This document shows positions 1,190 to 4,137 of a DNA stretch of 4,213 bases, in pieces. Positions within the stretch are counted from its first letter, which is position 1; each line of letters begins with the position of its first letter. The position numbers and the translations under genes are program-made. Origin of the DNA: a virus (lineage: Duplodnaviria; Heunggongvirae; Uroviricota; Caudoviricetes); IMG/VR virus record IMGVR_UViG_2529292882_000010; one strand, written 5' to 3'. Under the pieces are notes generated by a model. It saw only the letters and a list, made by a program, of their open reading frames with translations. It ran no database searches and was not told the DNA's origin.

Positions 1190-1609
1190 TTATGATGCGT
1201 TTTGTGCTTTCTTTTTACGGATTTCTTCGTAGATCATATTGTAATACTGTTTTTTCTCTTCAAGAGTTTTTAATAAGTTATCCGCTTCACTTTCTGGCAG
1301 TTCGTCTAAGAGATCTAAAAAAATACGTTGTCGTGGCGTTAGAACCCTTGTTTCATAATTGGAGGCTGTGTTCGTTGATGATGAAACGATACCATCCATC
1401 CATCCTCGGGGTAACCCAAAGGACTCTTCGATAATCTCCACCATATCATCAGCGATCCGTTTTTTTCCCTTTTTCCCCTCTGGGTACAACATTCTTGATA
1501 CATAAGAAGGCTCGCGACCGATTTTTCTGGCTACGTTAACCGCTTTACCATCGCATTTCTCATCACGAATTTTGATGAGTTGCTGTCGTCTAAATTCATA
1601 TTTGTCCAT
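1190..1609 (-). CDS. prophage immunity repressor, short Cro/CI-type HTH protein without S24 peptidase domain (RacR-like by position)
   Basis: Seen in sequence: 139-aa ORF divergent from a cro-like gene across a 100-bp operator-bearing intergenic region. The N-terminal segment KAVNVARKIGREPSYVSRMLY fits a helix-turn-helix, and the C-terminal region is charged and coiled-coil-like. At 139 aa it is too short to carry a LexA/CI-type autocleavage domain. No Shine-Dalgarno upstream of the ATG. Confidence 0.8.
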   Translation of the reverse strand: MDKYEFRRQQLIKIRDEKCDGKAVNVARKIGREPSYVSRMLYPEGKKGKKRIADDMVEIIEESFGLPRGWMDGIVSSSTNTASNYETRVLTPRQRIFLDLLDELPESEADNLLKTLEEKKQYYNMIYEEIRKKKAQNAS

Positions 1610-2423: not shown

Positions 2424-3371
2424 ATGAGCAGCAAGCTTCATGGTCTTGTCTGGGAAGGGTGTGCCTTCACCGGCATGATCTTATCCAGGGTGGCAGTAAT
2501 GGCTCGCCTTGCAGATTACAGCAATGACGAAGGTGTGTCATGGCCTGCAGTGGAGACCATTCGTCGTCAGATTGGGGCAAAGAGTGAATCAACGGTTAAA
2601 GCTGCGATAGCGGAACTGGAAAAGAACGGCTGGCTGACGAAGGAGGAACGTAAGGTCGGTGGGCGTAATGAAAGCAATATCTACCGTCTTAATGTGGAAA
2701 AACTCGAAGCAGCAGCAGCGGCGGCGCGTGAGGCATATAAACCGAAAAGAAAAATTAGCCAGGCAAAAAATGACCCGTCAAATATTGCCCCCTCAACGGT
2801 TGACCCCTCAAATTTTGATGGATCAACCATTGATAAAAAACAGCCGGATAGGGGGGCGATGGTTGGCCCCGATCCGTCAGTATTAAAACCTGATCCGTCA
2901 GATAAAAGATCTTTTCGTCCGGAAGCTTCGCAACCGGACTCGCAGACGGCTGAACAGGATTTTTTAACCCGACACCCTGACGCTGTTGTGTTCAGTGCGA
3001 AAAAACGCCAGTGGGGTAGCCAGGAAGATTTAGCGTGTGCGCAGTGGATCTGGGGACGAATCGTGAGTCTTTACGAACAGGCTGCCAGCGATGATGGCGA
3101 GATCACGCGACCGAAAGCCCCCAACTGGACCGCATGGGCTAATGACGTGCGCACAATGCGGATGCTGGATGGCAGAACTCACAGACAAATTTGCGAAATG
3201 TTTGGTCGGGTACAGCGGGATCCATTCTGGGTAAAAAACGTCATGAGTCCGTCAAAGCTTCGTGAAAAATGGGATGAGCTGGTTATTCGTCTGGGGCGTT
3301 CGCCTGTACAGCGTTGCGTGAATCACATTTCTGAACCGGATACCGAAATTCCGCCGGGCTTCAGGGGGTAA
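2424..3371 (+). CDS. phage replication initiation protein (N-terminal winged-helix DNA-binding domain, repeat-bearing linker, conserved Trp-rich C-terminal domain)
   Basis: Seen in sequence: 315-aa ORF, ATG at 2424 with GGAG at 6 nt spacing. The N-terminal region (LADYSNDEGVSWPAVETIRRQIGAKSESTVKAAIAELEKNGWL) matches the pattern of HTH-type replication initiator N-domains. The central linker carries four DPS repeats encoded by direct DNA repeats. The C-terminal region is Trp-rich and resembles the conserved C-terminal domain seen on phage replisome-organiser proteins. Domain names are from memory. Confidence 0.8.
   Translation: MSSKLHGLVWEGCAFTGMILSRVAVMARLADYSNDEGVSWPAVETIRRQIGAKSESTVKAAIAELEKNGWLTKEERKVGGRNESNIYRLNVEKLEAAAAAAREAYKPKRKISQAKNDPSNIAPSTVDPSNFDGSTIDKKQPDRGAMVGPDPSVLKPDPSDKRSFRPEASQPDSQTAEQDFLTRHPDAVVFSAKKRQWGSQEDLACAQWIWGRIVSLYEQAASDDGEITRPKAPNWTAWANDVRTMRMLDGRTHRQICEMFGRVQRDPFWVKNVMSPSKLREKWDELVIRLGRSPVQRCVNHISEPDTEIPPGFRG
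2771..2915 (+). repeat. iteron array inside the initiator gene: candidate phage origin of replication
   Basis: Seen in sequence: four direct repeats of TGAYCCNTCA at 2771-2780, 2801-2810, 2870-2879 (CGATCCGTCA) and 2891-2900, with a degenerate copy near 2818-2828. Spacings are about 30, 70 and 20 bp. Followed by the AT-rich palindrome AAAAGATCTTTT (2904-2915). Four GATC sites fall within about 90 bp (2821, 2871, 2892, 2908). Established parallel: the lambda origin lies inside gene O as iterons plus an AT-rich segment. Confidence 0.6.
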
Positions 3372-3391
3372 GTGTTTATTTCAGCTCATGA

Positions 3392-3407
3392 GGTAATTTT
3401 CAGGAGG
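3392..3407 (+). promoter_or_regulatory. copy 1 of repeated RBS-containing junction module GGTAATTTTCAGGAGG
   Basis: Seen in sequence: the 16-mer at 3392-3407 is identical to 3809-3824. It contains AGGAGG immediately upstream of the TTG start at 3410, only 2 nt away. Confidence 0.6.
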
Positions 3408-3409
3408 AC

Positions 3410-3835
3410 TTGTGGCAAAAGTATTTACACAAGAAGAGCGGGAAAAAAATTAAGGGGCAGATTGTTGAACTTGTACGTCTGAGCGGTCGCGAGACGTTAC
3501 GGCAACTGGAAGCGAAAACAGGTGCGACAAGATATCTGATGAGTGTTCTCGCCAGAGAGCTGGTTGCCAGTGGCGATGTATACAATTCTGGCTACGGGTT
3601 ATTTCCGTCTGAACAGGCTCGTAAGGACTGGCAAAACGCCCGCAAAAAACTATCGAGGGCAAAGGCGAAGAAACCGGTTGTGGTTGATCCGGACCTTATC
3701 TGGTCATTACCAGACGGAGAAATACGCCGCTACGACAGGAGCCAGAACATAATCTGTCGCGAGTGCCGGAAGAGTGAGGTTATGCAGCGAGTGCTGGCGT
3801 TTTATCAGGGTAATTTTCAGGAGGTGATGGCGTGA
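3410..3835 (+). CDS. hypothetical phage protein (141 aa) with a predicted winged-helix-like N-terminal segment
   Basis: Seen in sequence: the only open frame here. It must start at TTG 3410, because there is no in-frame ATG or GTG before residue 44 and the N-terminal segment (IVELVRLSGRETLRQLEAKTGATRYLMSVLARELV) looks like a real HTH or winged-helix fold. The basic middle and C-terminal CxxC are noted. The stop TGA overlaps the next start as GTGA. Family not recognised. Confidence 0.65.
   Translation: MWQKYLHKKSGKKIKGQIVELVRLSGRETLRQLEAKTGATRYLMSVLARELVASGDVYNSGYGLFPSEQARKDWQNARKKLSRAKAKKPVVVDPDLIWSLPDGEIRRYDRSQNIICRECRKSEVMQRVLAFYQGNFQEVMA
3809..3824 (+). promoter_or_regulatory. copy 2 of repeated RBS-containing junction module GGTAATTTTCAGGAGG
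   Basis: Seen in sequence: identical 16-mer at the 3' end of CDS 3410..3835, where it encodes GNFQE. AGGAGG (3819-3824) lies 7 nt upstream of the GTG start at 3832. Confidence 0.65.
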
Positions 3836-4137
3836 GGGTGAGAGTCTATATCGCCGGTCCAATGACCGGGTATAAAAATTTCAACCGTGAGGCGTTCCAC
3901 AATGCGGAAGAGGAACTGAAACGGGAAGGGCATACAGTCTTAAACCCGGCAGTACTTCCGGACGGGCTGACACAGCCACACTACATGGATATTTGCATGG
4001 CAATGATTCGTTGTGTGGATGCGATTTACATGCTGAAAGGCTGGCAGCGGTCAGCAGGTGCTAAGGCAGAACTGGCACTGGCGGAGAAGCTGGGGCATGC
4101 AGTTATTTTTCAGGAGGCAACCAGTGAGCAACATTAA
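3832..4137 (+). CDS. DUF4406-family protein (nucleoside 2-deoxyribosyltransferase-like fold)
   Basis: Seen in sequence: 101-aa ORF with GTG start overlapping the upstream stop (GTGA). The N-terminal motif VYIAGPMTG, then NPA, then GWQRSAGAKAE match my recollection of the DUF4406 family common in enterobacterial prophages. Family name from memory. Confidence 0.75.
   Translation: MRVRVYIAGPMTGYKNFNREAFHNAEEELKREGHTVLNPAVLPDGLTQPHYMDICMAMIRCVDAIYMLKGWQRSAGAKAELALAEKLGHAVIFQEATSEQH
4102..4117 (+). promoter_or_regulatory. copy 3 (variant) of the junction module: GTTATTTTTCAGGAGG
   Basis: Seen in sequence: TTTTCAGGAGG at 4107-4117 inside the 3' end of the DUF4406 gene, where it encodes IFQEA. AGGAGG lies 6 nt upstream of GTG at 4124. 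Confidence 0.6.

Follow-up and report, generated by a model that had tools for sequence, protein, structure and literature searches.

The open reading frame (ORF) at positions 3410..3835 of the window, the whole 4,213-nt stretch of the IMG/VR virus record IMGVR_UViG_2529292882_000010 analysed here, is very probably a frameshifted allele of the DUF977 gene of lambdoid/Rac-type prophages, with its native start at GTG 3412 and with its function lost or strongly reduced. An extra A in the A6 tract of codons 11-13, probably inserted by ordinary replication slippage in the homopolymer, ends the native frame at TAA 3451, 13 codons in. The 128 or so codons that remain lie in the +1 frame which, being open back to a TTG overlapping the native start, is reported as a 'TTG-started' protein of 141 aa. 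The coordinates of the features are collected in Table 1.

Table 1. Features at the DUF977 junction of the window (DtoStart, distance to the start codon as used in the text)
Feature	Position	Strand	Remarks
Junction module GGTAATTTTCAGGAGG, containing the Shine-Dalgarno (SD) sequence AGGAGG (3402-3407) of the DUF977 gene	3392..3407	+	also upstream of homologous DUF977 genes
Probably fortuitous TTG overlapping the likely true start (cTTGTGg)	3410..3412	+	2-nt spacer 'AC', DtoStart 10
Probable native GTG start codon of the DUF977/LygF gene	3412..3414	+	4-nt spacer, DtoStart 12
Truncated native frame, 13 codons (M/V-AKVFTQEEREKN), then TAA 3451-3453	3412..3453	+	
A7 homopolymer (A6 plus one inserted A), the probable frameshift lesion	3443..3449	+	
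Rest of the DUF977 coding sequence (codons about 13-140), out of frame with the start	3449..3835	+	
DUF4406 gene downstream	3832..4137	+	GTG start, 7 nt past AGGAGG 3819-3824

The junction sequence around the start is ...GGTAATTTTCAGGAGGACTTGTGGCAAAAG... in the window. An earlier note on this DNA had described the start of the 3410..3835 ORF as anomalous, and its coordinates were borne out on the window sequence. TTG 3410-3412 sits 2 nt past AGGAGG 3402-3407, the ORF contains no ATG or GTG in frame before codon 44 (ATG 3539), and the spacers of the next two genes are 7 nt (AGGAGG 3819-3824 to GTG 3832) and 6 nt (AGGAGG 4112-4117 to GTG 4124), corresponding to DtoStart values of 15 and 14 when AGGAGG is aligned as in UAAGGAGG. 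As an account of the real start geometry the description did not hold, the overlapping GTG 3412 and the A7 run having been overlooked. The 141-aa ORF is bounded upstream by an in-frame stop at 3389, and its own stop (TGA 3833-3835) overlaps GTG 3832 of the DUF4406 gene (GTGA). GTG 3412-3414 overlaps the TTG and belongs to a different frame, which reads VAKVFTQEEREKN followed by a stop, a 13-codon ORF whose TAA (3451-3453) lies directly 3' of the A7 run. The 'CDS 3410..3835, TTG start only' is a product of ORF calling on a frameshifted gene and represents no real start geometry; without the frameshift downstream, the TTG would not be the first start codon of the long ORF. The 4-nt spacer of the native GUG is rather short, is conserved across the family and is inside the known functional range.

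Deletion of one A from the window yielded a 140-aa protein, MAKVFTQEEREKIKGQIVELV..., and this repaired translation is present verbatim in public data (P0012), encoded on two Logan contigs. One of these contigs, L135, is an A6 twin sharing 99.8% identity with the window over 2245 nt, the sole gap being at 3443. Because P0012 and L135 differ from the window by that indel, the lesion is a single-base insertion relative to an intact twin in circulation, and it is the A7 insertion that makes the GTG-3412 frame stop at 3451. The window copy, a frameshifted DUF977 member, lacks an intact reading frame from the conserved start of the family to its stop. Removal of one base restored exactly P0012 across a frame-changing indel, as is characteristic of frameshifted pseudogenes in the PGAP sense. 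A small deletion at the junction, one of the explanations that had been offered for the unusual spacing, can be discarded since the intact A6 twins (L134 and L135) have the identical junction AGGAGGACTTGTGG and the homologues conserve it. What remained of this suggestion was the small lesion as such: it is a 1-nt insertion (A6 to A7) and not a deletion, and it lies within the coding sequence, 31-37 nt downstream of the start and outside the 3402-3412 interval named in the earlier note, the junction itself being intact.

The repaired protein is a full-length member of the DUF977 family. It matched Pfam DUF977 (PF06163) with 111.9 bits, well over the gathering cut-off of 22.1 bits, and the alignment extended from residue 1 to residue 136 and from position 1 to position 134 of the 134-position profile. 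The TTG-started form scored 94.5 bits and was aligned only from residue 11 (profile position 10). The alignment to PHROG 142, too, begins at residue 1 of the GTG-started repaired protein. Coverage of residue 1 by the family profiles supports the GTG start. The N-terminus of DUF977 has been predicted to form a winged helix (Fido paper); this prediction, given without functional data, was all that the literature search returned on DUF977, and a PDB sequence search with the repaired protein gave no significant match. The prophage gene family to which the window copy belongs, as a frameshifted allele, is a known one that is functionally uncharacterised. The copy occupies the same position as the DUF977/LygF/PHROG 142 genes of Rac-type and lambdoid E. 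coli prophages, with an O-like replication gene upstream and DUF4406 downstream, and the SD-GTG junction is kept. It differs from these genes in having A7 for A6 in codons 11-13, its native frame being over after 13 codons.

In BLAST searches the region had counterparts in thousands of E. coli prophages and in about 20 phage records, in which the gene is called 'DUF977 family protein', 'LygF' or 'Ren-like exclusion protein'. In B4103-1, CFSAN004176, phage vB_EcoS-689R5 and Rac-SA53 annotation places the start of the CDS at the GTG/ATG equivalent to 3412. These four homologues were collinear with the window at the junction in the alignment, except for A6 in place of A7, and the annotated CDS is 423 nt (140 aa) in three of them and only 258 nt in the case of LygF of phage vB_EcoS-689R5. 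The GTA/GTT, CAA/CAG and CGG/CGA differences found 5' of the A-run among the BLAST homologues are silent when read in the GTG frame and change amino acids when read in the TTG frame.

The junction was also scanned with a pattern permitting a run of 5-9 nt, which matched 5 times in species-representative genomes and at least 120 times in IMG/VR. The run was 6 nt long in all 129 pattern-matched junctions (127 with A6, 2 with AGAAAA). An A7-specific pattern gave no match in IMG/VR and detected one contig in the metagenome collection. At the position of 3412, RTG was universal in the 95 unique junctions (GTG in 61, ATG in 34). TTG was confined to the 61 GTG-type junctions, and TTA or CTA was present in 34 of the 95 unique homologues. 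A codon-phase test assigned four of four variable columns to third positions of the GTG frame, a partly circular result as the pattern allowed variation only there. This test was discounted; the non-circular support consists of the BLAST alignment and the N-terminal coverage by the Pfam and PHROG profiles. Comparison with homologous junctions had been proposed in the earlier note as a check, with a normally spaced start in the same frame as the observation that would speak against the anomaly, and it did reveal in the homologues a better-spaced start continuous with the ORF.

The same insertion was encountered on other backgrounds. The 90% cluster that includes the window's protein has 11 distinct members, compared with 3511 in the intact cluster. 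All 11 carry the out-of-frame N-terminus ...WQK[YF]LHKKSGKK..., and their backgrounds and called starts differ. At the DNA level A7 was found in L130, where the SD is AAGGGGG, in L136, whose protein occurs on 5 contigs, in L137, whose Rac-type junction has ATG but lacks the TTG and for which the caller picks an upstream ATG, and in L138, the complete genome of strain CUVET19-970. RefSeq labels the last copy as a DUF977 pseudogene, 'frameshifted', beginning at GTG. This locus (NF091_RS10450, E. coli CUVET19-970, NZ_CP098910.1) has the same A6-to-A7 insertion in the same tract as the window, but its background is different (SD AGGAGGG, GTT and AAAGGA variants), which makes it an independent insertion event. 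A BLAST search of complete E. coli genomes with a 78-nt consensus gave one clear A7 case (H68); the ranking misses A7 alleles with more SNPs, and the 78-nt query gives no frequency. Because A7 was found on several backgrounds, the A-tract is a recurrent insertion hot spot at which A7 is rare and scattered. The recurrence could in principle reflect selection or switching and not neutral decay. An equivalent allele has already been called 'frameshifted' by RefSeq, and the window offers neither a start site nor a recoding signal nor a gene of a new kind.

In at least 11 distinct 'DUF977 family proteins' of public databases (P0001-P0011, e.g. EIG43993.1, EHK9649501.1 and EMM0719452.1) the first 13-33 or so residues are out-of-frame A7 artefacts. 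Their starts were chosen at any available upstream codon.

The window comes from E. coli B799 (GCA_000261385.1), matching its scaffold JH768573.1 with 100% identity, and the 141-aa protein as called is GenBank EIG43993.1 of this strain. The A7 allele was 100% identical over 3.3-3.8 kb in the ENA metagenome assembly ERZ27281786 (contig k141_4218) and in the Logan assembly of SRR13694741; independence of the three datasets was assumed from their differing sources. Occurrence of the same allele in separately assembled data makes a real inherited mutation likelier than a sequencing error, and a real, inherited mutation is most likely what A7 represents. If the extra A were a homopolymer miscall in the 2012 draft scaffold, the B799 prophage would have A6 and an intact gene starting at GTG 3412. 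The scaffold is indeed a draft with an N gap directly after the window, homopolymer indels are a classic error on some platforms, and A6 is overwhelmingly the norm among the junctions. Such an error is nevertheless improbable: the identical A7 allele is found in a MEGAHIT-style ENA metagenome assembly and in a Logan SRA assembly, comparison of the window with its 99.8% identical twin revealed no second indel over 2245 nt, and A7 alleles of other backgrounds occur in up to 5 contigs/assemblies, one of them a complete genome.

A real A7 could also have a function, either as a programmed +1 ribosomal or transcriptional slippage site setting a low DUF977 level, or as a phase-variable on/off switch. 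Re-pairing of tRNA-Lys from AAA 3445-3447 to AAA 3446-3448 would regenerate the exact wild-type protein, and so would loss of one A in the mRNA; moreover, A7 arose repeatedly in the same tract on different backgrounds. Restoration of the full protein by a one-base shift at an A-run is a feature shared with prfB +1 frameshifting and with slippage on A/T-runs. The window differs from those systems in having no conserved stimulators, in the rarity of A7 and in its short tract. At the AAA shift position the A site contains neither a hungry codon nor a stop codon, and a prfB-like SD 3 nt upstream is lacking. Known transcriptional-slippage or phase-variable genes have A runs of roughly 9 or more, compared with which A7 is short. 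With a short tract and no stimulatory elements, slippage would be expected to occur at trace level at most. A conserved frameshifted arrangement, as expected for programmed recoding, was not found among the homologues: A7 was seen in none of the 129 junctions, had no match in IMG/VR, is represented by 11 distinct proteins versus 3511, and is not fixed in the lineages examined. Apparently truncated DUF977 variants exist at other positions too, which fits with plain decay. A programmed site or switch is on this evidence very unlikely. There is likewise only a slim chance that the A6 tract in codons 11-13 serves as a mini contingency locus turning the gene off and on in lysogens, or as a site of tiny-dose slippage; if it did, A6/A7 switching would toggle a replication-region gene in lysogens, or slippage would set a tiny dose of its product.

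Initiation at overlapping start codons has been assayed with AUGUG and GUGUG placed behind UAAGGAGG, in vitro, in vivo and by toeprinting (PMC9841429). When the spacer was 2 or 3 nt (DtoStart 10/12 or 11/13) and the SD strong, initiation occurred exclusively at the 3' GUG, the 5' codon being physically barred from the P site by the short spacing (PMC9841429). GUG at short spacing was less efficient than at DtoStart 14, and in native GTGTG genes the 3' codon was always used (PMC9841429). The window likewise has two codons 2 nt apart behind a strong SD. Its DtoStart values of 10/12 belong to the class in which only the 3' GUG is used, and are shorter than the spacing for dual-frame initiation (about 12/14 or longer). 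It differs from the assayed set, AUGUG and GUGUG (PMC9841429), in that its 5' codon is UUG and UUGUG was outside that set, and also in that its second frame is meaningful only through the downstream frameshift, with no sign of dual-frame coding.

If the ORF is a frameshifted DUF977 allele, as preferred here, the SD-bound ribosomes would, by analogy with the spacing results of PMC9841429, start at GTG 3412 and yield just a 13-residue peptide. Intact alleles would produce DUF977 from the GTG 3412 start at a probably modest rate. The A7 allele would yield hardly any DUF977 protein or none at all, with next to nothing coming from the TTG; traces might arise only through a +1 slip of tRNA-Lys or through slippage during transcription of the A7 run. 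The product MAKVFTQEEREKIKGQ... is predicted at trace level at most, and a MWQKYLHK... product with the N-terminus of the TTG form is predicted to be absent. Rescue from a downstream start is unlikely, the nearest in-frame codons being ATT and CTG and ATG 3539 having no usable SD. The premature stop would leave about 380 nt untranslated ahead of the DUF4406 gene. A polarity effect on this gene is speculative, because it has a strong SD of its own.

Alternatively, the 141-aa protein might truly be made from TTG 3410, either weakly by design or by non-canonical initiation, as a form of DUF977 whose first 13 residues are novel. Bacteria do use TTG as a start codon, no stop interrupts the ORF between the TTG and its normal end, and proteins of this kind are annotated in GenBank (EIG43993.1) and by PGAP-type callers. 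UUG is, on the other hand, a weaker start codon than AUG or GUG. With AUG or GUG as the 5' codon of overlapping starts, no initiation at that codon was detectable at DtoStart 10 behind a strong SD, whether in vitro or in vivo (PMC9841429). Conservation of the TTG among the homologues is lacking, and the N-terminus that it encodes has no match to the family profile. A7 alleles without the TTG (P0002, L137) get another upstream codon from the callers, which indicates that such starts stem from ORF calling. Synthesis from the TTG must be regarded as having a very low probability. The suggestion of the earlier note that initiation is non-canonical found no support, given the absence of TTG in 34 of the 95 unique homologues and the exclusion of the 5' codon at a 2-nt spacer (PMC9841429). 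Its other suggestion, translation that is inefficient by design, can be retained only in a weak form, inasmuch as the 4-nt spacer of the native GTG (DtoStart 12) is suboptimal for GUG (PMC9841429). A start at Met44 (ATG 3539, 98-aa product), the first in-frame ATG of the long ORF, was rejected as extremely unlikely: it would remove the first 43 residues, which lie within the DUF977 domain covered from residue 1 and predicted to form a winged helix, the sole SD-like element upstream (AGGTG 3521-3525) is 13 nt off, far past the optimum, and the exact 98-aa product was absent from a collection of 15 billion proteins.

The 16-nt module GGTAATTTTCAGGAGG is present at 3392 and 3809, and an 88% copy at 4102 brings the number of copies to 3; none of 200 shuffles reached 3 matches, which marks the module as non-random. 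The copies (3392-3407, 3809-3824 and 4102-4117) mark three consecutive gene junctions. Those at 3809 and 4102 encode the C-terminus of the upstream gene (..GNFQEV.. and ..VIFQEA..). The copy at 3392 is intergenic, and the TTG frame reads G-N-F-Q-E there, resembling the C-terminus of DUF977. The module looks like the portable junction or linker sequences proposed for module exchange in mosaic lambdoid phages.

An O-like HTH_36 replication-initiator gene (2424-3371) directly precedes DUF977 in the window, with no P/DnaC-type loader gene between them. In Rac-SA53 (L004), ydaU, ydaV and ydaW lie ahead of lygF. Comparison of the two gene orders indicates that DUF977 is attached to different replication modules via different junction types. 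In E. coli CFSAN004176 (L002 504-1563) the annotation marks the adjacent replisome-organizer gene as a 'frameshifted' pseudogene, a second sign of decay of replication-region genes in resident prophages. The positions of cro and cII are occupied by YdaS-like (1710-1991) and YdaT-like (1975-2400) genes, which overlap by 17 nt; the YdaS-like match was weak, below the Pfam cut-off. Pfam calls YdaS/YdaT-type families 'toxins', and here they are located at lambdoid early-regulator sites. A perfect 12-bp palindrome, TACCCATGGGTA, occurs in two copies 25 bp apart (1108-1119 and 1133-1144), followed by T9 at 1146-1154, just 3' of a repressor-like gene (1190-1609, minus strand). The palindrome pair with T9 could be an operator-like or terminator-like element. 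At its other end the window (4213, equal to L131 3804) abuts a gap of 1695 N (L131 3805-5499) in the B799 scaffold JH768573.1, and this gap truncates the Ead/Ea22-like gene that begins at GTG 4124. In the ENA metagenome copy (L132) the sequence goes on into an Ead_Ea22 gene of 214 aa.

With the ORF interpreted as a frameshifted DUF977 allele, a single-base insertion in a homopolymer combined with the logic of taking the first start codon in an ORF would account for a false, odd-looking start site, and the annotation would be corrected to that of a DUF977 pseudogene whose native start is GTG 3412. The case would be of mild interest for the recurrent insertion on several backgrounds and for the natural UUGUG/short-spacer context, and would illustrate how accessory genes of prophages routinely decay at homopolymer hot spots.
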